From NCBI GenBank assembly GCA_000091205.1, contig AP006495.2: DNA of 64,000 nt. One strand, given 5' to 3'. Made by a program: the position numbers and the translations under genes. This DNA is from Cyanidioschyzon merolae. Lineage: Eukaryota. The notes under the pieces were generated by a model. It was not told where the DNA came from, did no database searches, and saw only the letters and a program-made list of their open reading frames with translations. Below, piece after piece: positions 1 to 58,495 of the stretch. The stretch's first letter is position 1, and each line of letters opens with the position of its first letter.

Positions 1-1494
1 CCCCCCATTCCCCCCTCATTTCCCTCCTTTTTTCTCTCCGGTGGTATGATCTCTGCGCAAAGCATGTATCATTTCGATTTTTTTATTTCGGAGCCTTTAG
101 TGTATTCCATTCAGTCCCACGTTCGCTGCGCATACGAATCTCCATTTTGTGACGCCTAGAGCAGCATGCGCTTTATGGTATTCTCTCCGATGTTATGCTT
201 ATTTTGTTTGACAGGACGTTTCCACTCTCCATATTTTCCGTGTTTTCGGAATGATATTCGCTTTTTGGGAATGTGTCCGTCATGATTATCCTTTTTTTGT
301 ACTTTCTATCGCCAATACTTTCCCTCGGCTGTGCTGGTTGGTTCATAATTTCTGTTTTCCGGGGGTGCCTGCCGTGAGTCGTCTCTGTTGCGCCACTTTA
401 CCTGGTGTGGGTGCTGTTGGAGAAGAGAACAGCTTTTGCTTACCACTGAGCTCTTTGGGACAGGCTTGGTTTGTTTGACACCCAATCTGTGCTCTTTATA
501 TTTTGCGAGCCGCCAAGCTGTGCATGCACACCTTTAGCTCGCAATAGTGCGGAGCTGTATAATGGGTGTCCCCCGCGACCTAGTTGTCGCCCAGACGCTG
601 CAGGCTTGGTCCTAGTCCTAAAATCAAATGCGTTGCGACGATATGCTGAGGTTCGACCCATCACTCGCCACTGGAATGTCACACGTAAGACACGCCGGTG
701 GTTTTTCGCGGCCCGCGGACCTTCCGCCTAAACGGTATCTGTTTGACAATACGCAAAATCTTCCTGCTCTTATTGTCTACCGTAGTTGGGGATAGTATTT
801 TTTATCACGTTGTTAGAGATTGTTCTTTTTTTCGATATCGTTCGTCGCGGTTACGCACCACGAAATCTGGCCGTCCCTTCAAACGACGTGTGTTTTGTCG
901 AAGGAAAGAACCGCGATAATGACGTCTTCTGGAGCTACTGCTCTATTGGGGCAAGTTGTACTTCCGATCAAATCGGGGAATAATAAATTTTTGGCTTCAA
1001 TCGAGTCTCAGTCCTCATGTAGGATTATTTATGTTACTTTCGCCTCTGAAAGTAGAAGCGTCGAAAGTGTTATCGCCCAAAAAACTAGATTATTGTAATT
1101 GGAAGTGGAGAGTTTTAGATTGCCGATGTTGCCGTGTGTTTGAAGCAAACGAGAAAGAATGCCTTGTAATGGGTAAAAGGTAAAGAGGAAGATGCAATAC
1201 ATGGAAGCCTTTTCGAAGGCTGCCATATTGATATCTGTACGACAAGATTGTGGTAGCGTACTATCTTCTCCAACATATCGGTGGTTTGTACGACTGAATG
1301 TGGCCAGACGCTATCAGAAACATTGTCGATTCGTACACCAGGTATGTTTGGAACCTTTCTTGGGGACTGAAGCACTTGGAGTGTGAGCTGCATCGCGACG
1401 TATCGCGCATCGCAAAAGTTTTGTTTCTGGAAAATTTTTAAAAGTATTTTCATCAACCACCTGATTCTTTGCTATGCGGAACCATCGATGAGAA

Positions 1495-3124
1495 ATGCAC
1501 ATGTGCATGTCTTTCTCAAAAATGTACGCCAAATACCCCGTCAACGGTACTGGACACAGGGGTGACGCAGATAGTTACGAATACAGGGCAGTGAGGTACC
1601 TCACGAATGTGAGGAACCATAATATCGTTAACCCCGATTGTTGCGTAATACGCGCCGTCTTTGCGCTGTACCCCGGCCTGCTTCGCGAAAGGGTTTCGGC
1701 AATCATCCATTGTATCAAGAATAATCCCCAGTATGAACAAGAGATCAGATTCGTCGACGACAGGACATCACGCAGGAAAAAAAATGGGCTTCTATTACGC
1801 GCGCAAGTATTCCAAAACATCGTTCGGTCTTGGGGCATGTCAACCCAAGAGAAAAAAACTCAGATATTAGAACAGACTAAGAGATATGATACCTTTTTAT
1901 CCTACCCTCGTTCATATTTTTGGACCGAGAACTCGAAGGGAAGGGCGAAATGGAGCTGAGAGTGGATAAAATGAAGAGTTAGAGAAATGACATTCAATCC
2001 CTCCACCATATGCGCTTCAATGTCGTTTGGTTATGCAAGTTCATTTCACATTTTGTGAATATCGACCCTAGAGTCCTTTACGTATTCATGAATGAGATCA
2101 GTCCAGAGCTCGATGAAAGCAACAAAGAGGTAACCGGCGAAATCCGGGACACCTACTGGAAGAATAATTTCGATTTTAATCGTCCCAAACGGGGCAAAAA
2201 AAATGTTTTCACGGGGACATTCGGTTACGATGGGGTATACTTATGTGTACATTATCAGCGATTGCGGGTTCTTCGTCCTATCCCGTCTTCGGTAATGCGC
2301 TTTCCGAAGCACGAACACAAGAAGACAGGCGATGGAACGTATAATCCCCTCGGAAACCAGTTTCGTGTCGGCCTGAAACTCTCGAACACGAATATCATAA
2401 CCTTCGCTGTACCCAAGCGTGCGGAAGATGGCATTGATGGCAACTTACGCGAAAAAGACACGCGTCTGTTATAGCCCTCAAGAGCGAGATACTACCGAGA
2501 AACGGTAACCAAGGTTGCGAAAAAAATTTAGAAGTGGAACGAAGTAATTAAAGAGGACCTTGAAGCCTTGAGCGAAGTGACGAGCCGCAGAGCGGACTTT
2601 GAAGCTTTTCGGGAGTTTATGGAAGTTCGTGCTCGTCATTGGGATGCACTGCGGGGGGAGTATACCAAGCCCTGGTGGGCTCGTCTGCGTATGAATCTGT
2701 ATATTAGTAAGCAGCGGGCGGTCGCGAATTTTTTCAATCAGTTGAGCGCCCTCAAATAGGATGAAAGTCAGATGCTCGTAGTAGCGTATGGGGCAGGGCG
2801 ATGGAAGACCCAAAAACGGACTACGTCAGCGCCAACGACGAGAACGTACAAGGAGCGCGCACGGCTTTTCGCTACGATACCTGTAGATGTGTTCCGAAAG
2901 TCCTATACACAACATAATCTGGGTTGTGCACTTCAGAGGGTCCAAATGAAGAGTGCCAGCGGAGCCGTAAGGAAATAGCAAAGTACGGACCGCTCACGGA
3001 AGAGCAAATGGAATGGAGAGCGAAAGTGCGAGGGCTACTCGCATTAGTAAGCACAGCCTGTGATGGCAAGAAACGTATGGAGTTCGTGGACCGAGACTCT
3101 AACGCCGCTGTCAATATAACGTAA
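1495..3124 (+). pseudogene. Decayed TnpB/Fanzor-like (OMEGA-type) RuvC nuclease gene, split over at least three frames by stops and frameshifts
   Basis: Pieces in successive ORFs keep TnpB order and spacing. N-terminal 'YEYRAVRY...CCVIRAVFAL' resembles the TnpB start (YKYRxYP...GCCRFVYN). 'TGTFGYDGVYLCV' fits RuvC-I GxDxG. 'ISKQRAVANFFNQLS' resembles the helical linker. 'YKERARLFATIPVDVFRKSYT' resembles the YKAxxxGxxVxxVxPxYTSQ block. The C-terminus ends 'CDGKKRMEFVDRDSNAAVNIT', an exact DRDxNAAxNI RuvC-III motif. Total span ~520 codons, which is Fanzor size. It lies inside the AT-rich block 1-3300. Confidence 0.5.
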
Positions 3125-3379
3125 TGTGCGGTGCTGGAGAAAAGACCTCCAGAGCTGACAAGAGACAACTTTATTGGACAACCTCCCAAAAAGGAACCAT
3201 ATGAGAAAAAAATTGAAGCAGTAGTAGATGGCCGGTCCAAAAAGACGGGGACGCGTCTTCTCATCAGTTGGAGACGTTTTGTCTAGGGCAGGTCACTCGC
3301 CACTACTGTACACTGCTGCCGGCAGCAACGTTTTTCTTTTGAAAGGCGTTTGTTCTTGGCGCTGTGCGGCCGACCAGTT

Positions 3380-4786
3380 TTACTTCGCCCCCAGTTGCTT
3401 TAGGGCATCCTGTGTGAGGCGCTGTTTCCCATTCAATATCGCCTGTCGTGTTTCAGGCGGCAATCGTTGCACATCTTCCATTGATTTCCGTAAGAGCCGT
3501 ATCATGAGCATGATTTCTTGAGCTCTGCGGGCCTTTGGAAACAAGTCCGCTACAACAGACTCCAGCCACAGTGAAGTTTTCGCCGCTGCATCAGTTTGTG
3601 GTGATTGTCGGTTTTTCGCCTTCGAGACGATGTTTTCCGCAATGCGGACGGCATGGTTCACCCATAGATCCTCGGTCTTGTAGCGATCCATCTTGAAAAC
3701 AGATTCGGGTAGATATCGATTCTTAAACACGAGGAACTTGCCGAGCTGCCGCCGCCTTTGCCGCCGCACATCAGCCTCCAGTCTAGAGTGGAGTCCTTCC
3801 TCATACATCCGAACTTTCTCGACTGCGGCCGGACCCTCACGCTCCAGCAAACTCGAAGCGACGCGTGCTTGCTCCTCTCGAACAGAGGGTGGCAACAGCG
3901 AAACACTCAACTGCGGCGGTCGAATCTCCAGCAGACGCGACGCTCGCGCCATCCGACGTGGCGACACATCCATTGCTTCAGACTCTGAGTCTGCAACCTG
4001 CCTTTTGGTCCGCGGCGCGCGCCTCGCAGACTCCCTAGCATCTGAAACGGCCTCTAACAGACGGCTCTTTCGCTGCCGCCATGGACGCCGCACTTGTGTG
4101 GACGACTCGTCCAGATCCACGGACACTGCACTGGTGTCAGTAGCACTTCGTGCGGTCGAGCGCACTTTCTCAGCAACTTCAGCGAGACCGAGCAGCGATC
4201 GGGATACTCTCCTCTGGAGTGCGCCAGCCCCTTTGGCCGTGTACAACGCAGCATGGGAGGGTTCCGTCCGTGTCGTGTCGCGCCCCGTACCATTCAGAGG
4301 TAACCCAGTTTCTTTCGCAGTCGGTTGTGCGCGTTCACGCTGCTGCTGTTCAAGACCCGCAAGCAGGGTGCTGCGTCCAGCTCTTCGACGCGGCTCTCGT
4401 TCTTCAGACTGACTCCCCTGGCCGGTACCCGTAGAGCCTACACTTGCATCATCTGCGAAACCGCGACTCCGCAGACGCACCCATAGCGCGACACGTTGAG
4501 TCTTCGCGAGGGCACCGCGCAGGCCCAGACCCATGTCTACCGCACCCAGAAAGCGAGTTGGCAGCACCATGCCTCGTATGGCAGTGTAGGCACTGCGCGC
4601 CACTACCCCGGCGGAGACGTTAATCCCGTTGGTTTCGATAGTTGGTTTCGTCGGGACAGACTGTATAGCGCTAACAACGCGTTGAAAACAGAACAACGTC
4701 TGCGCTGCATACGAGTAGGGTGATTCTTGTATAAAGCGGACGCAGGGCACACCACGCGCTCGCGCTACGCCTGCGCTACAGTGCAT
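3380..4786 (-). CDS. Hypothetical Arg/Ser-rich protein, 468 aa, family not recognised
   Basis: Long uninterrupted ORF on the minus strand. The overlapping plus-strand ORF 3693..4412 looks like a GC artefact. The start lies 140 bp from the divergent EF-1 gamma gene. Confidence 0.35.
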   Translation of the reverse strand: MHCSAGVARARGVPCVRFIQESPYSYAAQTLFCFQRVVSAIQSVPTKPTIETNGINVSAGVVARSAYTAIRGMVLPTRFLGAVDMGLGLRGALAKTQRVALWVRLRSRGFADDASVGSTGTGQGSQSEEREPRRRAGRSTLLAGLEQQQRERAQPTAKETGLPLNGTGRDTTRTEPSHAALYTAKGAGALQRRVSRSLLGLAEVAEKVRSTARSATDTSAVSVDLDESSTQVRRPWRQRKSRLLEAVSDARESARRAPRTKRQVADSESEAMDVSPRRMARASRLLEIRPPQLSVSLLPPSVREEQARVASSLLEREGPAAVEKVRMYEEGLHSRLEADVRRQRRRQLGKFLVFKNRYLPESVFKMDRYKTEDLWVNHAVRIAENIVSKAKNRQSPQTDAAAKTSLWLESVVADLFPKARRAQEIMLMIRLLRKSMEDVQRLPPETRQAILNGKQRLTQDALKQLGAK

Positions 4787-4925
4787 TAGGGTAATTCATT
4801 ACCAAAAAGGACGTCAGCCACACGTCGCGCACGCCCCGCACCTGCGCCATGCCCCGTCTATACTACCGCGCTTGCTTTTGCACACTAGGGCACGGTGCGC
4901 GACTTGAAGTAACACCACCTTCGAA

Positions 4926-6206
4926 ATGAAACTTTATACATATCCGAACAATCCACGGGCATACAAAGCGTTGATCGCTGCGCAGTACTGCGGTGCTGAG
5001 GTCCAAGTACCTCCAGACTTCAAGTTTCTGGAAGATAACCGAAAGCCAGAGTTCCTGCGCCTTAACCCTTTCGGCCAAGTCCCGCTTCTAGATCTGGGCG
5101 ACGGCAAAGCAGTGTTCGAGTCAAATGCGATAGCGCGCTATATTCTTGAGTCTAGTAATCGTCAGGATATGCTGGGAGGTGACGATGCAGTTCAGCGGGC
5201 GCAGGTGGCTGCCTTTGGTGACGTCGCGCTTGGGCGGATCGACCCGCTGGGTCGGCCACTGGTGTACCCGACAATCTTCCCTGCATTCTTCAAGCCGGAC
5301 AAGACACGATTTGAAGAAGCGCTGGAGCAATTCCGTGCCGTTATCGGCGGGTTTGAGCGCCACCTCACAGACCACACGTTTCTCGTAGGGGAGCGTATCA
5401 CACTCGCGGATATCACCGTCAGCATGTCCCTCTTCTGGTTTTTCGAATACCTTTTGGATCCCGAACTTCTCATGGAATATCGAGCACTCAAGCGCTGGTT
5501 CTACACGTGTATCGGCCAACCAGAGTTTGTCAAAGTGATCGGCTCAGATTTCAAGCCCTGCCTGAAGCGCCCGGACCATCTGAAAATGGCGACCAGCACG
5601 AATGCAGACCTTGGAGGCCATGCGGGAAACCAAGGGCATGAGTCCAGCGATCATGCTGCTGAGGTCACTGAGGATGACCAAACGGCTCGAAAGCCTAAGA
5701 ATGCATTCGACCTTCTACCCAAATCCTCCTTCAATCTTGAAGCAGCGAAGCGGCTTTACTCCAACGCAGACAACACTCGGGAAGTAATGAACCAGATCTG
5801 GGATACGATGTTTGACCCGAGTGGCTACTCGGTCTGGGTTGTGCGATACCGCTACAACCATGAGCTCAGCAAGACCTTCATGTCTGCGAATCTGCTGAAC
5901 GGCTGGTTCCAGCGAATGGATCACCTTCGCAAGTACCTGTTTGGCTCAATGATTGTATTCGGTACGAGTGGGGAACCCGGATCTTGTGCAATTGGAGGGG
6001 CATTCATTGTACGAGGCACCGGAGATTCGTTACCAGAACCTCTAACCGAAGTCGAGGACACGGACCTGTACACGTGGACGAAAGCGGATGTCTTCGGCAA
6101 GGATCGCGATCTTGTTAATGATTTGTTTGCCTGGGAGGGCAAGTTCGAGGGCATGGGACCTGATTACGATGGCAAGCCTGTTGCAACTGGAAAGAACTTC
6201 AAGTAA
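4926..6206 (+). CDS. EF1G: Translation elongation factor 1-gamma (GST-like N-terminal domain plus EF1G C-terminal domain)
   Basis: 426-aa intronless ORF. The N-terminus has a GST fold. The C-terminus carries EF1G hallmarks ('KNAFDLLPKSSFNLEAAKRLYSN...WVVRYRYNHELSKTFMSANLLNGWFQRMDHLRKYLFGSMIVFG'). Confidence 0.9.
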   Translation: MKLYTYPNNPRAYKALIAAQYCGAEVQVPPDFKFLEDNRKPEFLRLNPFGQVPLLDLGDGKAVFESNAIARYILESSNRQDMLGGDDAVQRAQVAAFGDVALGRIDPLGRPLVYPTIFPAFFKPDKTRFEEALEQFRAVIGGFERHLTDHTFLVGERITLADITVSMSLFWFFEYLLDPELLMEYRALKRWFYTCIGQPEFVKVIGSDFKPCLKRPDHLKMATSTNADLGGHAGNQGHESSDHAAEVTEDDQTARKPKNAFDLLPKSSFNLEAAKRLYSNADNTREVMNQIWDTMFDPSGYSVWVVRYRYNHELSKTFMSANLLNGWFQRMDHLRKYLFGSMIVFGTSGEPGSCAIGGAFIVRGTGDSLPEPLTEVEDTDLYTWTKADVFGKDRDLVNDLFAWEGKFEGMGPDYDGKPVATGKNFK

Positions 6207-18806: not shown

Positions 18807-19927
18807 AAAGCCATCTGCAAGGCCTCCACCCTTACGATGAACAAGTTAACGTCGCAATTGAAACGCTGGGCCACACCAAGTACCCAGCGGTTGCGCTTCA
18901 CACCTGCAGTCGCTCAGAAAGCAAGCACGAGGCATATACCGGCCGCAGTGCGCAGCCACGCTGTCAGCGCCATGCAGCGCGCGCCGGCCTCCATGCACGC
19001 CGTGGTCGCACCGATACCGGGTTTACGTGAGCGCAGCTCAGGAGTAGAAAACGATGCGCAAGCTGCAATTCGATAATAATTTCTTTCGACCTCCTTGTTA
19101 AGCGTTGAAAGAGGGAAAAATTTTCCGTATTGTCGAGCGTTTACCCTCTAGACGAAAGGCCAGCGAGCTGGACGAGTCAGCCGGGCGAGCGCTCCGTGCT
19201 CCCCCGGCGGCGTGTGGTGTGGCGAGACCTGCGCAACTCGTCCGTAAAACGCACTTCATTCTAGGAATAAGGACGGTAAGGCTGCATCTAGGCGTCGCCC
19301 TGGTCCCAATGGTCTCCTAGCATATCGCTTCGCGGTGCCGCGGGCAGTAGGTCTGTCTGTACAGCTTGCAGGCTCACAAAATGATTACGAATCCCGAACC
19401 TATGTCGGATGAACGACGACTCGAGACGACGCCCGCAGTGGTATGCCAAAGCCGATCTGTCTCTGTGATGCATCCGCTCCAGAGGTATCAGCGCTAAAAG
19501 GGGTTTTCACGGCTGACACTCGGCGTACGATAGCATGTACGAAACGACCAGGATATCCGAGAGGAATTCTAAGAAATGGAACTTGAAGGTAGGTGCTTCA
19601 TGATGGACGCTTTTTAGATTACCATTATTCATCCTGCTATCTGGGATCCATGGTCCATGGAAACGTTTTTTCATCAGAAGAAAAAATCTCCTCTTGTAAG
19701 CGCACAGCGCCCGCAGCAGGCGCATCGTGCAACGTCGATCGACGCTATCACGCCAGTCCGCGAGCGTGCGCCGTGAACCTCATCGACAATCTCCTCATGA
19801 AGCCGGTCAGCACGGCGCGCTCGCCGGGATACCTCGTTATACTGAATGAACCTACATGCCCTTGAAAACAACTCACTGGATACGGCTGGCGACGTGCTCG
19901 CCAGCAGCTGTTGCTGCGCGTGCTCTT

Positions 19928-33750: not shown

Positions 33751-35211
33751 GGAAAAGCGACGTACTTCGTTTACGATTCGATCATGAAGGCGTTCATGAT
33801 ACCGAGGATCTTCAGGATCGCCACTGCGAACTAAAGAGCGTGGCATTGGATTTCGCCCGAGCTGGCATGCGGTACGCGGTACCTGAGCAGCGTGCCAGCG
33901 AGCGCTTCAAGCGAAGATGCAGCCAGTGGGATTGAAGGGCCCATTTCCACCGATGAACATGCCAATATTAGATGAACGCATCCCCCATGGATGCAGTAGC
34001 ATCGAAGTATAGAACCACATGACGGTTCACTCGTTCGCCCAGGGACATCGTTCTCGATGAATGGATGCGACGCTCGAGCCGTGCTGGAACGCTCAGCTGC
34101 ACGATGTCAGCGGCTGCGTCGGGGCGACCATCCAATGCCCTCTGTACCTGTCACTGACGTCAATTCATCGCAAGTGTTCAGCGTGCCCATACAATGCCCC
34201 AATGAGTACAAAATGGTGCGTTTGAAGGTGCGCTCGACACAGAGCCGCTTGACGATGAGGAAGCACAGTACGTTTTCGGGTATTGATCGAGACGTTCCAG
34301 TTTCGATATAGCGCGAGCCTTTAGCGGATGGGTGCTGGTTGCGTCACCGCGAACCATTGGTCTCGAATTCAGCTGCCTTACCATCTCGTGCATTCGGCTC
34401 CATTTCATGCTCATCTTTTGGATGTGTTTAAATGGGCACTTGTGCTCTTGATGCGAATATATGTCGTCCTGAACGCATTCATAGGAATTGCCCAGAATCG
34501 ATTCCTGTATGCAGTGTACGCTTTTGTCGGAAGCGCAAGATTGCAGACCTTTGCGAGCTACGGCACGTCCCGTGCAACAACCTACCTGCAAAAGATGCGA
34601 ACTTTAAGTAGTTTCCTCGTCCAGTTCATTGAACCAGTTGAAAAATGCACGCATCTTGCCTCCGCTCCACTGAAGCCGATCGCGACCCCAGCACTGCCTC
34701 ATATACGCCTGCCAGTGGTCGTCTACACGAGCCATCTGGACGCTCATGTGCTCTGTGGAACGTGGAATCCCCTCCATCAGACCCGCATTTTTCTGGGTCT
34801 GTGAGGTCAGGCTGAAACCGCTGGAGGAAGCGATCCTTGAAGCACGCAGTATTGACCTGCACACAGTTTCAGTATATGAGGTTGGTTGCATACGTATTGA
34901 CACCGCCGCTGCAGATGCTCCGGTTGCCGACACCGAGCGACGACGCGTCCGTGTATGCTCGGAGACGCGTGTGCAGAAGCAGATGCAACGATCAGGCCGT
35001 ACTGCATCTCCTGCTCCGAAAATCAGTAGTCGCACGAAGATTGGATCGAATACTTCCGAAGAATGCAGACTTTCCGCGACTATTCTCCAAATAAAACGAT
35101 ACATTCCTTTTGTTGAATAATTTTGATAACAAGATACAAAAACAGCGTGCTGGTGCAGACATTCCAGCATGCACTGCGCAGCGTACCACATCGAGCGGTG
35201 CGCGTGCGAAC

Positions 35212-37287: not shown

Positions 37288-39432
37288 ATGGCTCAAACTG
37301 CAACACTGGTCGAGCGAGACCTGCGTTCTCTGCTATGCTCAACGCGAGCAGGTTGCTGCTTTGCTGCCGCCGTGGCACCGGAGCGCCTCCGGCGCCGAGC
37401 TCTAACAGGCGCAGCCGCGCATCCTCCAAGGCGGAGCGGTTACCATCGTGGGTGTCCTTGTGGGGATGTTCGCATGCCTGGACTCCATGCAGGGAAGCAG
37501 GCATTGCTATGGCGATACCAGAGATCACTGCCTCGACGACAGCAGCAGTATTGGGGTCGGCACGCGTGCCGATCTGGCGTGCTGATGTCCATTAGAAGCG
37601 CACTGAGCGAGCAGCAGGCAGCTGCTTCAACGGATCTCCTGATTCTCAGCAACGGCCCCGGCGAGCTTTATACTTGGGTTCGACCGCTCCTCATGCATCT
37701 CGGCGAGGAGTTTCGCATTTCCATCGCGTTGACGCCTTGTCCACACGCTAGCGGTAGAGAAATGGACGCAGTGCTGCGCTTTCCGCATGTGGCACGGGTT
37801 TTGCCACCAGCCCATTTCTGGCGACTGCTCCTCGGAATCGAGTCGCATGGGTTGTGGGAACCGGGCGACTCAAACGCAGGTTCTTCGTCTGCCGACATGG
37901 AAACGTTCTGGCGTCGACAGGGGGTCGTTCTATTTCTTGGCGGTGACCAGTTTTTTGCAGGCCTTATTGCGAGAAGGCTCGGGTACCCATGCGTAGCCTA
38001 TGCTGAATGGGATGCCATGTGGCCCGGATGGATTTCCTGTTATGCAGTGCGGAGGCAAGCGATCCGCCAACGGGCCCGCAGGCACCTGCTTTATCGGCTT
38101 TTTGTGGCTTGGGCATGGATCCTCGGACTCTGGGGGGTCACTCTCCAGCAGCGACGGCGAGCAGTTCCCAGAATCGTGGTGATCGGCGACCTGACAACGG
38201 ATGCAGTTTGGCAGTACGACAATGTTCGGGAAAAAGCGAAGACGCTACGCGATTTGTACGTTGCGGCCTACGCGGAGACGCATCTGGGCGACTCGACCGC
38301 GCACGAGACGAAGCTTAGCCCCCAAAACCAACATTCCAGTGAGGTGCGCTCGACAGCTGCAGCCCATCAGAATCGAGTGCCTCGTACGTCGGTGTTGCAG
38401 GCCGGCTCCTCGCGGGAAAAGCATATTCTCGTTGGCCTGCTACCGGGATCGAAACCGAGCAAGCTGGCAATCATGGTTCCATTCTTGCTGCTGTGCGCGT
38501 ATCATATACACATGCGCGCAATGCGCTTGGGTGTTGGCCCCGTGGTGTTCGTGCTCCCAGTGGCACCGGGCTTGGATACAGCAACAGTACAGCGCTTTGC
38601 GGATCCCGCTCACAACTCAATGTTTCAGTTCATCCCGGGCGCCTCTGCTCATTCGTCGCTCTGCACCAAATTCACAGCTGCAGACGAGCCAAGCGTAGCC
38701 ACGGAACAAAGTAAGCGACCCGCTCCACATGCGCAAGTCGCACAGGCCATGCCCTCAGCGCTGGACCCAGACGAGCGCAATATGGAGGCCGGCCCTGGCC
38801 CGCTGGCCCCGTGCCTGCTTATTGATCGCGTGCACGCCCCAGCAGCGGGTGCAAGCGGCGTAGGACGTCTCGAAGCTAGCGCTGTTCAAGTGCCGATTTT
38901 TTTACACGAAGAATCCCCCGCGTATGCGTTGCTTGCTGCTACAGACATATGCCTGACAACCGTTGGTGCAAATACGGCGGAACTGGCCTCGCTTTGGACG
39001 CCCGCCCTGGTACTCGTTCCCACGCATCGATTGGATGTAATGCGCGCATGGGACGGAATCTTGGGTATTCTGTGTCGTTTGCCTCTGATCGGTACGATCA
39101 TTACGATCCTGACAAACCGCATCATATTGTGGATGTATGCGACTCGCCGCTGGGGCTACTTTGCGCTCCCTAATCGCTGGGCAGGGAACCGCGAACTACT
39201 TCCAGAGCTGGTTGGTAATTTGGATGCTCAGCAAGTTGCGGCCCGGGCGCTCGGCCTGGCACTCGATCAGGATAGGTTGCAGCTCATTCGACATGCGTTA
39301 CGGAACCATGCGCAGCCAAGTGGTGCAGTGCGTCGCCTTGCGGTGCTTGTGCGGCATGCACAACGCACTGCAGCAGTAGCTGCACCGAGAGAGGCAGTTG
39401 CTGATGCACACGACTCGTTGCGTACCGCATGA
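37288..39432 (+). CDS. LPXB: Lipid-A-disaccharide synthase-like protein (LpxB, GT19) with an inserted segment. The conserved domain starts at Met100 (37585); the upstream 99 codons may be a targeting peptide.
   Basis: Collinear LpxB blocks: 'ILSNGPGELYTWVRPLL' (AGExSGD-like), 'VLFLGGDQFFAGLIARRLGYPCVAYAEWDAMWPGW' (LpxB VFVGIDAPDF...YVSPSVWAWR), 'VGLLPGSKPSKL' (LLPGSR), 'ALLAATDICLTTVGANTAELASLWTPALVLV' and 'ALPNRWAGNRELLPELVGN' (SLPNLLAGRELVKEL). Confidence 0.6.
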   Translation: MAQTATLVERDLRSLLCSTRAGCCFAAAVAPERLRRRALTGAAAHPPRRSGYHRGCPCGDVRMPGLHAGKQALLWRYQRSLPRRQQQYWGRHACRSGVLMSIRSALSEQQAAASTDLLILSNGPGELYTWVRPLLMHLGEEFRISIALTPCPHASGREMDAVLRFPHVARVLPPAHFWRLLLGIESHGLWEPGDSNAGSSSADMETFWRRQGVVLFLGGDQFFAGLIARRLGYPCVAYAEWDAMWPGWISCYAVRRQAIRQRARRHLLYRLFVAWAWILGLWGVTLQQRRRAVPRIVVIGDLTTDAVWQYDNVREKAKTLRDLYVAAYAETHLGDSTAHETKLSPQNQHSSEVRSTAAAHQNRVPRTSVLQAGSSREKHILVGLLPGSKPSKLAIMVPFLLLCAYHIHMRAMRLGVGPVVFVLPVAPGLDTATVQRFADPAHNSMFQFIPGASAHSSLCTKFTAADEPSVATEQSKRPAPHAQVAQAMPSALDPDERNMEAGPGPLAPCLLIDRVHAPAAGASGVGRLEASAVQVPIFLHEESPAYALLAATDICLTTVGANTAELASLWTPALVLVPTHRLDVMRAWDGILGILCRLPLIGTIITILTNRIILWMYATRRWGYFALPNRWAGNRELLPELVGNLDAQQVAARALGLALDQDRLQLIRHALRNHAQPSGAVRRLAVLVRHAQRTAAVAAPREAVADAHDSLRTA

Positions 39433-43206: not shown

Positions 43207-43489
43207 AGAATCGGGAACTATCAGGGAACCGTACCGCTCCCAAATACATCCACGGGCTCATCGCAGAGCTGCCGACGAAGCAGGTGCAGCTGCGTACGCT
43301 GCCGGTAACCCCGCGGCTCGGGCACCGTACGCGCAACCTGCGTCCAAGCGGCAAGCACCATCCTACCTGTTCCGAAATATGCTCCCAGAGGCGTCGGTCT
43401 CGTCTGTTTGCATCGTAAAGTGTCTTGAGCACGGAGATCAGTCATCGCGGCAATCACTTCCAATAGAGACTGCGTCACCGTTGTGCGTA

Positions 43490-43700
43490 AAGGGAGCGTA
43501 GACGAATTGGGACCAGTCGCACTGTTCTCCGGCGTGGATTTTCCTCCCGGTACTTATTTCATCATGCAAAACATCGCCTTCCACAATTCTTTTATCGAAT
43601 GAGATAGAGAACTCTCCGAACGATCGCCCACAATCAGCATGCGATCATCTGATGACGCACCGGACACGGAAGCGGAGGATGGCATCGGGACCTGAACTCG
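43490..43700 (+). repeat. Dispersed repeat, copy B (paired with copy A at 9664-9900), ~500 bp upstream of the S1 gene
   Basis: See copy A. Both copies are in the same orientation and both lie in intergenic DNA. Confidence 0.55.
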
Positions 43701-46355: not shown

Positions 46356-46980
46356 TGAAGAAAACGAGCAAGAAAAAGTGCCAGGGACGGGAGCGCTAGG
46401 GGCGTCACCGGTGCGGCGACGGCAGCCGGAGCAGCGTCCGCGTAAAAACGTACGCTGCCTGGCGTCACGAAGAGGCTGCTAGAGCAGCGAGATGGCAGTA
46501 CTGCGAAATGCGACCTGGCTCGTTGTTAGGGTAGCACGAACGCTATGCAGGCAGATGACTATCGCCAAACGGACGTCCTGATCAGGCTCGTCTACCGGGC
46601 TGCGACTCGCAAGCAACGGGAACCCAGAAACGCGCTGGTAGAACTGGCCTCGCCTCGTCACGAACGCGTAAAACAGCACGAACGAATACGAGTGAAAGCC
46701 CACATGTCGTCTGGAAGATCAACAGGGCTTACACTTTGTCAGGAGCCGATAATCGTGGCATAGCTGGGATCCCCCGGTTCCTGTGAAAGATCCTAGACTC
46801 CGAGAGACGCACGGCTTTGCAGAGAATGTGCGTAGTGAGACGTGAGACGCGGTTCCGGCGTGCGAGTAGCGGCGTTTGTCGACCTCAAACGCCTTATCCG
46901 GGATGAGCGTGCGTATGCGCAGAAACATGTCTGTGAATCAAACAGTGTCCCATGTCCGTATGGAGTAAATGCATACCCAC

Positions 46981-48097
46981 TCATAGAAGCCTCCCGGTCT
47001 TTTTTGACCGGCCGCATACGATCTGTTTCAGTTTATCCGGGCGCTGTCCGAGCGCGAGAGACTGCCCCACGAAGGCAGAACGCCGCATCTCCTCGGGCCA
47101 CGTCTTCAACGTCGCACATTGTCTGATACTGATGGCGGCATTGAAGCCTCGGTTCACGAACTCCATGCGTTCATTGCCTCGGATGAGACGCAACCACGCA
47201 AGAATTGCGAGAACTCGAGCTCTCTATGCCATTTGGTGCTGTGCCAGCTTTCCGTGCTTTGCTATCGCCGAGGCGCTCTGCTGGCCTTTCTCAATCTCGA
47301 TCTTCTGAAGTGTGTGCATCCCAGTTCATCCCCTGGATTTTGAAAATGGCCGCAGTGCTTTATGCACTCGGAAGAGGACACTCCGTGAGAAGGAAGGACT
47401 TGCACAAGAAAGACGTTATGTGCCCCTTTTTCACCATTAGCTGCAAGCTGCAGCGATTCTTCCGATGCAGCGATCATTATGTTCCACGATAGAACACACC
47501 TCTTCGATGGGACTCAACTACGGAGCGTACGAAGGAATGAAAAGCAGCCCTTCACTGGTAGAATCCGCAAAAGCACAAACGCGAACGGTAATGGTGAAAT
47601 GCCACGTTGTACAGTGGAAGGACGTCGAGAAACGTCAGGGGAAAAGTCTTCATTTATTCGACAAAGTGATTGGTGCAGTTGTGTGAGCATTTTCTACGAA
47701 AAATCTGAAAACGCCAAACGATTCCACAGCAGTCAGAACAGATGATGATGCGGTCATTCTCTTCGAGATCGATCGTACATACAACGGGCCCCCTGCGCCG
47801 CGAATACCCATAAACTCTCCGACTTTTTCATCCGAACCAGATCTCATCTACCGAAAAAAAAACAAATTGGTGTCAATCTGTTTTATACCGATCGCAACGT
47901 TCCAGGAATTCTCTTGATGCGATTTCGTTGGAAGAGAGCCGTGCCTGAACGAGGACTGTTTTTTTGCGGCTGTATCCAAGTGTTTTCAGGACCACACGAA
48001 CAAGCTGATGAGAAACGGAGACGCCCGAGGTTGATACGATCGCCGCTTTTGCTTTCCGTACGGCGACCAACATGCCCTTCTCTACCATTGACCGCAA
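46981..48097 (-). mobile_element. Degenerate Tc1/mariner-superfamily transposase relic (frameshifted pieces)
   Basis: Minus-strand ORF 47873..48097 reads 'GVSVSHQLVRVVLKTLGYSRKKTVLVQARLSSNEIASREF', matching the Tc1 HTH/linker ('KLSVSTRTVRRRLNEAGLHARSPVKKPFISKKNRMARVAWAK'). The next ORF 47650..47847 reads 'RSGSDEKVGEFMGIRGAGGPLYVRSI', matching Tc1 'WSDESKFNLFGSDG..WVRR'. The catalytic DDE core downstream is only weakly recognisable ('HFQNPGDELG', 'KTWPEEM'). The local sequence is AT-richer than its flanks. Confidence 0.45.
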
Positions 48098-48747
48098 GCG
48101 TGCTTTGAAAACACCATGTTTGGCGCGGAGCGCGTATACTTGTACATTTCAGTGTTCCGCAACCGTCCGCGTCCTGTTTTATGACTGACCGGAAGGAGGA
48201 ATACAGTTCTCCTTACACTCTTCAGTAAAGAATATGTATCCTACATACAATTCGTCTACGATCTATTCGATAGATTGCATCGTGATGTCGATTGCCTGCT
48301 ATACACCGCATCAAGGGCGAAACAACATGAAATTGAATGGCGACAGTTACCGAGCCGCTCGCTCGGATTCGTATTCCTCTTCCAGCGGCATTGGCTGAAC
48401 GCCGCTTTACCACGAGGGGTGTCCCATAAAGCGAGTGCTTGTTCAGTGCGCGCCCACAGTGAACACGAAACCTTCTCTGACTGTTTCGTGTTGCCAGTGC
48501 TCGTGGTGCGCCTCGCGTCTACCACGAAAGCGTCCCTCTTCTCAAACGCGTTGCCTCGTGCTGCGCACCGTGCACTCCGCGACGCTGCACCAGCACCGTA
48601 TCGAGCAGCTTTTCTCACACTCAAGCGAGTCTTCTCGTACGGAAAAACGCTCTCGTTTCCATCGGAAAAGAGCTGTAGGTAGCGGGTGCCGCTCGAGTTT
48701 CTGCGGCCAGTCGGCCGGCTGTCGCTCGCGTTTGGTAAACCCTATCC

Positions 48748-54586: not shown

Positions 54587-54676
54587 ATGCGGTGTTGTGA
54601 GCTGGGACCGAATACCGGGGCTGATCAACCAGAGCGCACCGAGCCTCCGTCCGAGACCAGCGAAAGTGATGAGGTC

Positions 54677-54708
<32 letters not shown>

Positions 54709-57700
54709 TGGGGATCTCGCCGACCGTCTAACGCGCAGCGTAGACGAACAGAGTCGATCCGCCGGGTGCGCGGCTAGCGGCGCCCAGGACAAGCCGCAGA
54801 CATTGTGCTCGGTGCAAGACGTCACCGCGTCCACTGCACAACGTTTTGACGTGCGCCAAAGCAAGGAGTGCGGCGAAGCTGTCCAGAACTTCAGCGAGCT
54901 TGGCGTGGGGAAGCAGCAAGAGCACGCTGATCCACGAACGGTCTGGCTTCCAGGGTCACCTGAGCCGACCGCGTTTCCCCAAGTCCGACTGGTTGGCAAC
55001 TGGGACCTACCGATGGTGCCCATGAACGAAGAACCCAGCGAATACACATCCTCTGTCAGGGAAGGCGCTGTGCCTGACCTGTGTGAAGAGGGTTCGGTTA
55101 CACGTGCGTCCAGAATAGGAGCTTGCGTGGTGCAAGCCGCGAGCCATTCCCGAGAAGCAGTCGCAGGCGACGCGCAGTCTACCGATGACCAGGAGAGCGA
55201 GATGCACACCGCAAGCGCGTCGACGACGACTGCTAGCTCGTTGAAGCAGTGCACAGCAGACGGGAAAAGCGGCGAATCCACCCAGAGGCTGCATACAGAC
55301 TCGAGAGCGTCCTCTGGCATCGCGTTTGTGCCCTACAAAAGTGAAGAAGAGGTACTGGCGGATTTAGAACTCGAGGATTCGATGGACGATCATACCTACA
55401 CACTGCTTGATCTTAGAAAATCCTTGCCAGAGCAGATGCAGCGCCGGTCCTACGCTTGCCCAACGGTGCGAGACGGCAGCAGGTCAGATCGTCACCTGGA
55501 TAGGCGGGCATTCCGTGGCGAAAACGAAGAAGAACACGACGACGATAGCTCCAGCGGACCAGATCGGGATGTCTGGACGCCACCGGCTACGCCTTTGGAT
55601 AGCGAGATGCCGCTCATCGTGTGTCCACCGGAGCCCGTCTGGCCATGCGAGGAAGATCTGCGGGATCTCACACCCGCTGAACTTGCACGCTCTACGGATG
55701 TATTCATGCAGGTTGCGGAGGAGCTGCATTTCCACTGGCGTGTGCTCAAGCTCGGTACCGATCCGGTAACGCCAACCCCTCTGCTTGAGCGTCTTAAGTT
55801 TCTCTGTATCGTATCGAGCAACCTCGATGAGTACTTTTCCAAAAACATGTACGATGTGTCAAAAACAATGCGCCCACTCTACGAACGGATTTCAGCTGCG
55901 ATACGCGACATCACTGCTCAGCAGGAGTCCTGTTTCACGGACGTTATTCTACCAGCGCTCGCTCGATATGATATGCGCATTCTACGTTACGCAGATCTCA
56001 GTATGACGCAGCGAGCGCAGATGAACGCGTTCTTCCATGCTCGTCTGTTTCCACTGCTTACCCCGCTGACCCTGGATCCGACGCATCCGTTTCCGCTTCT
56101 GCGCAGTCACTCGCTGTACCTGGCGGTGCTGCTGAAAGGCGCTCAGCTGATGCCGCCTTCGGAACACGACGCCCACGACGGCGACGAAAGTCCGATTCCG
56201 GCGCTGAGTCCACCGAACGCCTCCCTGGACCGCTCGATAGCCACTGCGCTGCCCTCTGATACCCACGTCGCCTGGGTCCGAGTCCCGTCGTCGTGTAGTC
56301 GCTTCATTACCGTGGACAATGAGAAGCGTTTTTTGCCGGTCGAGGAGATTATCATCCAGAACTTGGATGCGCTTTTCGAAAACGTGCGCGTCATTGCAGC
56401 GTACCCGTTCCGCGTGACCCGTAATACCAAACTTGAACTGGACAAGATCGAACTCAACGAAAGTGAGGATTTTTTGAAAATTGTCGAAGAGAACCTATAT
56501 AGTCGACAGCGACGAGCCGCAGTGCGGCTGGAGGTTTCGCGCGATATGCCCGACGTGCTGACAACGCTGTTGCGCGAGCAACTGAACCTGGAACCCTTGG
56601 CTATGTATCGCTCAAGGGCTCCGATTATTGGCCTCAACGACTGTTTCATGCTGACGAACGTCAACATCCCTGCTTTGCGATACCCCCCGTGGCGTTTCAA
56701 GACGCACTCTATTCTGGCCGGCTACAAATACGGCGTCCAGAGCGGGCACACGGCCCATATGTTTGAGCTCATTCGACACAACGACGTGCTGTTCTCGTTT
56801 CCGATTCATTCTTTTGATGAGACCACTCTGCGTTTCCTCGAAAGCGCAGTTCGGGACCCCGCAGTGCGCCTGATGAAAATGGTGCTGTATCGATGTGGGA
56901 ACAATTCACCTGTCGTGAAGCTGCTCATGGAGGCGGCTCGGCGTGGCATTGATGTCAATGTGCTGGTTGAACTCAAAGCTTCCTTTGATGAGGATCAGAA
57001 TGTCCTCTACGCTCGCATGCTCCAAGAGGCGGGCTGTAACGTCGCGTACGGGGTCAAGGGCTACAAGACCCACGCGAAACTTATTCTCGTGGTTCGCGAG
57101 GAGAATCATGCCCTGGTCTCGTATTGTAACGTCGCCACTGGCAACTACAATGCAACGACGGCGAAAATCTATACGGATTTTTCGCTGTTCACCAGTCGGG
57201 AGGATATCTGCGCCGATGTCACCGATTTGTTCAATGTGTTTACGGGGTATAGTGCGAAGCGATCGTTTCGCAAACTCCTCGTTTCACCGGTGAACATGCG
57301 CGATCGTTTCCTCGAACTCATTCAGCGCGAGATAGATAACGCTCGTGCGGGCTACCCGGCGAGAATCATCTGCCAGTGCAACGGTATCACTGAGGTGCTT
57401 ATCACCCAGCGACTCTACGAGGCGAGCATGGCCGGCGTTCGTGTCGACCTCATCGTACGCGGTATCTGCCGTGTTCGACCCGGCATCACCGGCATCAGCG
57501 AGAATATTCGCGTGGTGAGCATCCTCGGGCGTTTTTTGCTTCACGCTCGAGTGTTTTATTTTGCGAACGCCCGTGAGGCTAAACCCGAGTACTATATCGG
57601 GTCTGCGGACTGGCGTACACGAAATTTGCTCGCTCGTCTGGAGGCTGTCGCCCCGGTTGAAGACAAGTACCTGCAGCAGACACTCTGGCGACACCTGAAT

Positions 57701-58495
57701 CGGCTGTTGAGTGATTCTGTGAACGGTTGGGAGATGCTCCCCGACGGTCGCTACGTGAAAGGCGAAAGCGAAGCGCTCGGGCATCTCCGAGATGCGATCA
57801 TGGCTGCGCGTCGGGAGGCCGAAGCCGAGGCCCTCAAACCGCCAGCACAAGCACCGGTGTCGGCGGACGAGGTGACACCGGGCTCGTCGGAGGCCGAACA
57901 CTTGCCCGTCGTGCGTAAAGCTGGTTGTGTTCCGGTTCGGTTGAACCGGCGACACAACACGCGTCGAGACGATATTGGCACGCGGTACGAGGTGCTTCTG
58001 ATCACCTCTACCTCGTCGTCGTTTATTGCGCGGCATCCGAATGATTCGCGCGTCTCGGAAATACCGGACGGTGGCATCACGTGGGTCTTCCCCAAAGGCA
58101 GCATGGCGTACGGTGAAGATGGCCGCAGTGCTGCGCTGCGCGAGGCCCTCGAGGAGGCCGGAGTCAGCGGCGAACTCGGGCCGCTCCTCAGTGTCAGCAC
58201 GAAACGCAAACGGAGAACGGTGGTCATGACCGAGTTTTATTTGCTGCATGTGAAACAGCAGCTGTCCCAATGGGGCGAAAGCAGCCAGCGACACCGGCGC
58301 TGGTTTACACTAGACGAGGCAGCGAATGTGATCACCAAAGAGTATCTCTTGGAAGCGCTGATGAAGGCTCGTCAAGCGCTCGGCGAAACGCCTACCAGCC
58401 AACCGACATCGCCACCAGCACCACCAGCACCACCACCAGCAGCAGCAGCAGCAGCAGCATTCGAATCGACTACCAATGGCGGAAAAAAGCACTGA
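54587..58495 (+). CDS. PPK1: Polyphosphate kinase 1 (PPK1, full N/H/C1/C2 architecture) fused to a C-terminal DIPP-type Nudix hydrolase domain, preceded by a ~360-aa low-complexity N-terminal extension
   Basis: PPK1 blocks: 'LLERLKFLCIVSSNLDEYF', 'FRVTRNTKLELDKIELNESEDFLKIVEENLYSRQRRAAVRLEV', HKD-1 'YKTHAKLILVVREENHALVSYCNVATGNYN' and HKD-2 'RFLLHARVFYFANAREAKPEYYIGSADWRTRNL'. The Nudix region 'RHPNDSRVSEIPDGGITWVFPKGSMAYGEDGRSAALREALEEAGVSGELGPL...RHRRWFTLDEAANVI' parallels human DIPP 'RHPDRWIVPGGG...REVCEEAGVKGTLGRL...RKREWFKIEDAIKVL'. It is one continuous ORF of 1302 aa. Confidence 0.9.

Follow-up and report, generated by a model that had tools for sequence, protein, structure and literature searches.

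A run of broken open reading frames (ORFs) near the start of a 64,000-nucleotide (nt) stretch of Cyanidioschyzon merolae DNA (NCBI GenBank assembly GCA_000091205.1, contig AP006495.2; hereafter the window, numbered from its first letter) raises the questions of what protein these fragments once encoded, how they came to lie where they do, and whether anything of that protein's function could persist. The window is part of chromosome 13 of C. merolae 10D, with a G+C content of about 56% and few introns or none. The first-pass annotation, made from the letters alone, had read positions 1495–3124 as a decayed gene for a TnpB/Fanzor-like RNA-guided nuclease, left by the insertion of a TnpB-bearing transposon or a virus-derived element. 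We find that the locus is almost certainly a defunct copy of an interspersed element of C. merolae that bears a Fanzor1 gene and has been described both as the 'WSV repeat' and as CMe-1A. Coordinates of the features discussed are collected in Table 1.

The ORF fragments at 1495–3124 are confirmed as real and lie far beyond chance, because intact relatives match the window in tblastn with E-values of about 1e-142 (P0008, 3e-142; P0002, 5e-142) and a frame-aware alignment is collinear throughout. A protein stitched together from the fragments matches 57 hot-spring metagenome proteins with E-values down to 1e-168. Several of these are close to full length, among them relatives of 582–593 amino acids (aa) with 52% identity over 92% of the query, P0001 (752 aa) and P0051 (676 aa, with a methionine at its start). 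Along the window, tblastn places the similarity in frame 2 (1214–1420), frame 1 (1513–1881), frame 0 (1788–2957) and again frame 2 (2948–3313). The frame-aware dynamic-programming alignment begins at residue 27 of P0001 and stays collinear as far as the ancestral C-terminus (nt 1235–3283), with 56% identity to intact metagenomic relatives over 684 aligned residues, so the successive ORFs do rebuild a TnpB-like protein in the proposed order. They are nonetheless parts of a larger Fanzor1 pseudogene, the interval 1495–3124 being too short; the original ORF probably began near 1157. The ancestral protein had about 680–750 aa (580–750 aa in intact relatives) in place of the approximately 520 aa first estimated, and the suggestion drawn from that estimate, of a Fanzor-type rather than a TnpB-type protein, is borne out.

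The extent of decay was assessed from the same alignment and from comparison with other copies, for which the best 80 of at least 328 related stretches were taken from a scan of hot-spring metagenomes; the metagenomes with Fanzor1-related stretches also hold near-identical C. merolae contigs. The pseudogene carries about seven frameshifts (near 1420, 1437, 1516, 1788, 1970, 2001 and 2948) and eight in-frame stops (at 1295, 1878, 1887, 1988, 2472, 2529, 2757 and 3122). The last of these stops is TAA in the window copy only, the position being AGA or AAA in 45 of 54 aligned copies. The ancestral stop codon lies further downstream, where 33 of the 54 copies have TAG and five have TAA (38 together), and the codon periodicity of conservation among copies, with position 3 least conserved, continues up to 3283 and is absent thereafter. 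An independent metagenome contig that is more than 95% identical (L001) contains the same broken ORFs. Over 2400–3352 identity to the majority consensus is 84% for the window copy, and the median of the remaining copies is 89%. Of 68 related copies, only 3 retain a frame of 650 or more codons that is free of stops.

The assignment of this family to Fanzor1 comes from a deeper profile and from a predicted structure. An exhaustive profile search returned 1839 cluster representatives at E≤1e-3, and the deeper profile was built from 52 diverse full-length members of this representative search. Compared with PDB sequences, it gives exactly three matches at E≤1, all of them Fanzor1 proteins: PpFz1 of Parasitella parasitica (9cf0; E 1.9e-21), SpuFz1 of Spizellomyces punctatus (8gkh; E 1.4e-13) and GtFz1 of Guillardia theta (9cer; E 1.1e-8). 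Twelve of the 52 members reach PF07282 (Cas12f1-like TNB) at E≤0.01, and the precomputed family on the relatives is PF26935, DUF8286. An AlphaFold2 model of intact P0051, made with the 52-sequence alignment, has a predicted local distance difference test score (pLDDT) of 89.1 and a predicted template modelling (TM) score of 0.86; an earlier model from a 14-sequence alignment had a pLDDT of 33 and was left unused. The best Foldseek match of the P0051 model is SpuFz1 (E 7.6e-18; TM-scores of 0.65/0.72 over 671 columns), followed by PpFz1 and GtFz1, with Cas12f far behind at 3e-5. The fold predicted over the full length is that of Fanzor1, with WED, REC, RuvC and TNB/NUC domains, and applies to the family through P0051 rather than to the broken copy in the window. 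These results support reading the relic as the decayed remains of a gene of the TnpB superfamily, of the Fanzor type found in eukaryotes, in agreement with the first-pass annotation.

The sequence blocks that had drawn attention to this gene each correspond to a conserved block of the family: YEYRAVRYLTNVRNH at the N-terminal end to DIYTYRPMKYITNLKNH, 'YKERARLF..VDVFRKSYT' to YKECARRF..VDEFRTSYT, and 'DRDSNAAVNI' to NRDFNAAINI. The last of these is not an isolated match, since collinear similarity upstream of it is extensive and the profile matches are significant. The metal-coordinating residues of SpuFz1 are D383, E541 and D606 (PMC10432273), and in the hidden Markov model (HMM) alignment these fall on the 'DPG' aspartate, the 'DEFRT' glutamate and the 'NRD' aspartate respectively, a D-E-D triad that is invariant in the family. 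'DRDSNAAVNI' belongs to RuvC-III, and the window copy keeps its catalytic aspartate (GAC, 3095–3097). The RuvC-I aspartate has been replaced by lysine (AAA, 2376–2378) and the RuvC-II glutamate by valine (GTG, 2889–2891), so that one of three carboxylates is kept and two are lost. The 'GYDG' that had been taken for RuvC-I is instead a remnant of the invariant ETDG motif, which is 'TTDG' in SpuFz1 and lies some 55 residues upstream of the catalytic D383. The triad now reads Lys, Val, Asp, and the window copy is a pseudogene of the Fanzor1 family and not an active member. Directly before the RuvC-I strand, family members have a tandem array of one to five acidic repeat units, each about 24 aa long (KHEEKKEA..ATQKVQDNDLVVD; seen in P0001, P0008, P0011 and P0048), and a remnant of one such repeat ('KHEHKKTGDGTYNPLGNQFRV') is present in the window at about 2304–2360.

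The pseudogene is contained in an element whose limits can be seen by comparison among copies. In blastn of positions 1–5000 against the 80 metagenomic copies, similarity extends from 173 to about 3367, with none in the flanks, and two copies (L074 and L075) align with 173–3321 in a single piece at 70% identity. At the right end, pairwise identity among copies is 0.70–0.76 over the non-coding positions 3287–3352 and has fallen to 0.30 by 3353–3360; at the left end, homology in many copies starts 965–990 bp upstream of the ORF start, and a common 5' terminus of copies ('TTTGTTTGACA..') maps to about 198–211 in the window. The element is about 3.15–3.19 kb long and has a single gene, its ends in the window being placed to within about 5–30 nt only. 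The search for terminal repeats that the first-pass annotation had suggested yielded none in 100–3450, where terminal inverted repeats (TIRs), target-site duplications and tandem repeats were all looked for. The motif TTTGTTTGACA occurs on the plus strand at 203–213, 470–480 and 738–748, with a spacing of about 267 nt, inside the 5' non-coding module and nowhere else in the 64 kb, its first occurrence coinciding with the shared 5' terminus. The three motifs could be a set of subterminal binding sites, with the proviso that their number is not significant alone (three or more are present in 7 of 100 shuffles). Only about 20 nt separate the right end of the element from a convergent 468-aa ORF (3380–4786, minus strand), whose stop codon is at 3380.

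An element of this description is already known in C. merolae. Nozaki et al. (2007) reported a 'WSV repeat' of 253 copies averaging 3.2 kb, distributed over all chromosomes, transcribed and making up about 5% of the genome, with a truncated ORF in each copy that is weakly similar to wsv486 of white spot syndrome virus (WSSV) (PMC1955436). Bao and Jurka (2013) defined Fanzor, counted the WSSV protein itself as one, and described a single C. merolae Fanzor1 family, CMe-1A, with about 150 copies of about 3 kb that are about 80% identical to their consensus and have no TIRs, the target-site duplications being entered as undetermined in their account; its 5' 635 bp are shared with a separate repeat, TE-N2_CMe, and some copies still encode intact proteins (PMC3627910). 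H3K27me3 has been reported on about half of the repeats of C. merolae (PMC5405695). On the grounds of organism, size, structure and copy number, window positions 173–3358 are a copy of this repeat. As a decayed copy of a Fanzor1 element already on record, catalogued in 2007 and classed as Fanzor1 in 2013, it is an ordinary one.

In Fanzor1 systems that have been characterised, the 3' end of the element encodes the guide RNA, which overlaps the last part of the ORF. An omega-RNA remnant at the 3' end of the present element, which the first-pass annotation had suggested for about 3000–3300, is plausible but unproven, and by this analogy it would lie at about 3130–3358, formed by the 3' end of the ORF and the non-coding tail. 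This tail of about 70 nt (3287–3358) shows a level of conservation close to that of the coding sequence and has a sharp end. Predicted helices include CGTCT/AGACG at about 3255–3278, a GC helix at about 3290–3305 and a 10-bp terminal hairpin at about 3324–3354, the last with two sequence variants among copies that pair in different registers. The predicted folding energy in the window is −44.3 kcal/mol for the plus strand (z −1.7) and −31.6 kcal/mol for the minus strand (z −0.3), and in 41 of 44 copies the sense strand has the more stable fold, a bias to which G+T richness and shared ancestry contribute. If the tail were transcribed, the transcript would enter the 3' end of gene 3380–4786.

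By analogy with SpuFz1, GtFz1 and PpFz1, an intact element would encode one Fanzor1 protein of about 680–750 aa, a member of the eukaryotic branch of the TnpB/Cas12 RuvC nucleases, with a Lys/Arg-rich N-terminus, a WED and a REC domain, and a RuvC domain that is split and bears the D-E-D triad. This ancestral protein would bind an omega-RNA that is transcribed from its element's 3' end, overlaps the end of the ORF and runs to the right end of the element; the 3' guide of this RNA would direct cutting of DNA beside a short target-adjacent motif. Such cutting is believed to help the element to be retained or to spread. Homology, fold, decay, the limits of the element and its multicopy nature are observed directly, and the RNA-guided activity of the ancestral protein, the omega-RNA role of the 3' tail and the mechanism of transposition are inferred. 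The window copy is an old insertion, lying about 20 nt beyond the stop codon of the convergent gene, and is decaying neutrally. It can perform no such RNA-guided function, because it has about seven frameshifts and eight stops and because two of its three catalytic carboxylates have been replaced.

Several results weigh against this interpretation. A Pfam-A scan gives no useful match for the relic pieces or for the close intact relatives, with only a chance-level match to DUF5098 and, on P0001, a match to PF07282 at no better than E 0.23. A shallow profile of 10 relatives finds no Fanzor among PDB sequences; the relic alone has SpuFz1 as its top match there, at E 0.3 only. The profile comparison proposed in the first-pass annotation is consequently divided, the Pfam models failing to match the relic and the 52-member profile matching Fanzor1 only, and the Fanzor1 link rests on the deeper profile and the fold because Pfam-A and the shallow profile gave nothing. 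In the Cyanidiales Fanzor1 clade, conservation does not extend to the four zinc-ribbon cysteines of SpuFz1 and PpFz1. At this site (about 2900–3085 in the window), the CPRC and CTNPNC of SpuFz1 give way to 'THHE..' and 'WCxST' in the family (for the latter, 'ALVSTT' in Cyanidioschyzon copies), the replacements in the clade being 'THHELGC...' and 'RGLLALVSTT'. Of the published TnpB/Fanzor motif, which includes a C4 zinc finger between [TS][TS] and RD (Bao and Jurka; PMC3627910), the D-x174-[TS][TS] and RD parts are found in the family and the C4 zinc finger is not.

The structure-aware search for a conserved RNA likewise found no support from covariation. RNAalifold on 44 aligned 3' tails finds essentially no consensus structure, in part because the terminal-hairpin variants pair in different registers, and a hand-built three-helix structure is 81.5% paired compared with 81.4% in column shuffles; because the shuffles pair as well as the proposed structure, we make no claim of covariation. 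An Rfam scan of 1–4000 yields only a chance-level match to a long non-coding RNA. Finally, the identity with CMe-1A is a match by description, the window copy being compared with published properties of the repeat.

Three other explanations were considered and rejected. An origin of the element as what is left of integrated viral DNA with a wsv486-related ORF, rather than as a cellular transposon, would account for WSSV wsv486 being the sole BLASTX similarity in the 2007 study (PMC1955436), and Fanzors also occur in large double-stranded DNA viruses (PMC3627910). The WSSV protein, however, has itself been classed among the Fanzors, as one carried by an element inside the virus (PMC3627910), and the C. 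merolae element is a compact 3.2-kb single-gene unit with hundreds of dispersed copies and defined common ends, of which solo 5' modules and internally deleted derivatives exist; in the window, no other viral genes lie beside it. We consider a viral origin very improbable; a viral derivation is not needed because the element is multicopy in the genome. It is less probable still, to the point of being negligible, that the gene remains functional, with its frameshifts and stops being assembly errors or bypassed by recoding. The intact proteins of some CMe-1A copies (PMC3627910) and the transcription of the repeats (PMC1955436) would be in keeping with function; the 8 stops, about 7 frameshifts and lost catalytic aspartate and glutamate of this copy, and its 84% identity to the consensus, are not. 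The same fragments are present in an independently assembled metagenome contig, and the genome has been finished to 100% (PMC1955436).

We give equally little credence to a horizontally transferred bacterial-type TnpB (IS200/IS605 or IS607) in place of a Fanzor. The relic's protein shares the RuvC motifs of such proteins, and eight transposase-like elements of C. merolae are closest to bacterial transposases (PMC1955436). At E≤1, however, the profile matches Fanzor1 chains only and no TnpB chain, the protein is 580–750 aa long with a large N-terminal half that matches Fanzor1, no TnpA-like ORF is present in 173–3358, and there is no Pfam match to OrfB_IS605 or OrfB_Zn_ribbon. A dead copy of the C. 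merolae Fanzor1 element therefore remains the best explanation of the locus.

The copy at 173–3358 is one of four pieces of the Fanzor1-element family within the window. The core of its 5' module (270–771) matches 19613–19109 in self-blastn (61% identity, E 5e-31), and the solo repeat to which the latter belongs matches the 5' region of elements in 38 related loci and is probably TE-N2_CMe of Bao and Jurka. A second copy consists of the 3' end of the ORF joined to the 5' region of the element and is therefore to be read as an internally deleted derivative (46965–48306, minus strand) from which most of the ORF has gone; it coincides with a local dip in G+C and resembles the 'ghost' elements described for Spu-1. 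The third relic is older and is detectable at the protein level only. A segment of about 200 bp at 43382–43584 is like sequences found 2.7–5 kb downstream of Fanzor1 elements in three metagenome loci (L061, L081 and L085).

Table 1. Positions in the window of the Fanzor1-related features and of annotated C. merolae genes
Feature	Position	Strand	Basis or remark
Whole decayed Fanzor1 element, ~3.19 kb	173–3358	+	blastn to metagenomic copies; drop in conservation
5' non-coding module	173–1156	+	Core 270–771 homologous to solo 620-bp repeat
Fanzor1 pseudogene, aligned part	1235–3286	+	Frames 2, 1, 0, 2; frame-aware alignment and tblastn
'GYDG', remnant of invariant ETDG motif	2223–2234	+	Aligned to family 'IETDGV' and SpuFz1 'ITTDGAS'
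RuvC-I remnant 'GLKLSNTNI' (family 'GADPGNTNI')	2370–2396	+	Aligned to SpuFz1 D383
RuvC-II remnant 'VDVFRKS' (family 'VDEFRTS')	2883–2903	+	Aligned to SpuFz1 E541
RuvC-III 'VDRDSNAAVNI' (family 'FVNRDFNAAINI')	3086–3118	+	Aligned to SpuFz1 D606
Private nonsense codon TAA, end of last ORF in first-pass annotation	3122–3124	+	Copy alignment
Candidate omega-RNA (fRNA) scaffold remnant	3130–3358	+	ORF 3' end and conserved non-coding tail 3287–3358
Ancestral Fanzor1 stop codon TAG	3284–3286	+	Copy alignment and codon periodicity
EF-1 gamma gene	4926–6206		Protein identical to annotated C. merolae 10D protein
Solo 5' module, ~620 bp	19065–19688	−	61% identical to 270–771
Third, older Fanzor1 relic, intergenic	34207–34753	−	tblastn with P0051, E 3e-15, residues 490–667
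Gene for 714-aa protein	37288–39432		Protein identical to annotated C. merolae 10D protein
Second copy, 3' ORF end	46965–47329	−	Last ~110 codons, to 'GRSKKTG', without non-coding tail
Second copy, 5' region, ~900 bp	47398–48306	−	Joined to 46965–47329
Polyphosphate kinase gene	54587–58495		Protein identical to annotated C. merolae 10D protein

The RNA-guided nuclease activity of Fanzors was demonstrated in 2023. In full-text literature on Fanzor together with Cyanidioschyzon, we found beyond the 2013 paper only an unrelated preprint, and no test of Cyanidiales Fanzor1 or its RNA since 2023 was apparent. The main value of the present locus is that a badly decayed Fanzor could be recognised from sequence alone; there is also modest practical value, in that these repeats account for about 5% of a model genome that is very compact. 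The near-intact hot-spring relatives (P0051, 676 aa, and the L006 copy), together with the mapped 3' tail, provide a starting point for tests of a thermophile-derived Fanzor. A more speculative reading, which we think improbable, is that the Cyanidiales Fanzor1 clade is a functionally distinct variant, perhaps active in rare intact copies, with the conserved 3' RNA modules of dead copies such as this one still being transcribed and loaded in trans. The lost zinc-ribbon cysteines, the variable acidic repeat and the 45 °C acid-spring host may point in this direction, and if it were so, cleavage would be directed to matches of the 3' flanks of dead copies, which here would mean the 3' end of gene 3380–4786.

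Comparison with known systems places the window family among the Fanzors at increasing levels of similarity. Bacterial TnpB of the OMEGA systems (such as ISDra2) shares with it the RuvC fold, the order of motifs and an expected 3'-encoded guide RNA, but it is a protein of about 400 aa with a companion TnpA and left-end and right-end (LE/RE) hairpins, and has no significant sequence match to the family. The characterised Fanzor1 endonucleases SpuFz1, PpFz1 and GtFz1 are closer, with profile E-values of 1e-8 to 2e-21, an aligned D-E-D triad, superposition of the P0051 model on SpuFz1 (TM 0.65/0.72), and omega-RNAs encoded at the 3' end, where the window family has its conserved non-coding stretch. 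Sequence identity to these proteins is nevertheless only 11–16%, and the Cyanidiales clade differs from them in having no conserved zinc-ribbon cysteines and in having an acidic repeat of variable number before RuvC-I. Spu-1 has 30-nt inverted repeats whereas elements of the window family have none. The window copy is catalytically dead, and its family is known here from sequence data. The closest counterpart is CMe-1A, the 'WSV repeat', which is like the window copy in its genome of origin, its size of about 3.2 kb, its single and mostly truncated Fanzor1 ORF, the lack of TIRs, the occurrence of its 5' module, about 0.6 kb long, as a solo repeat as well, an identity of about 80–85% to the consensus, and its many dispersed copies. 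We see no difference in kind between the two, and the window copy is simply among the more decayed ones.

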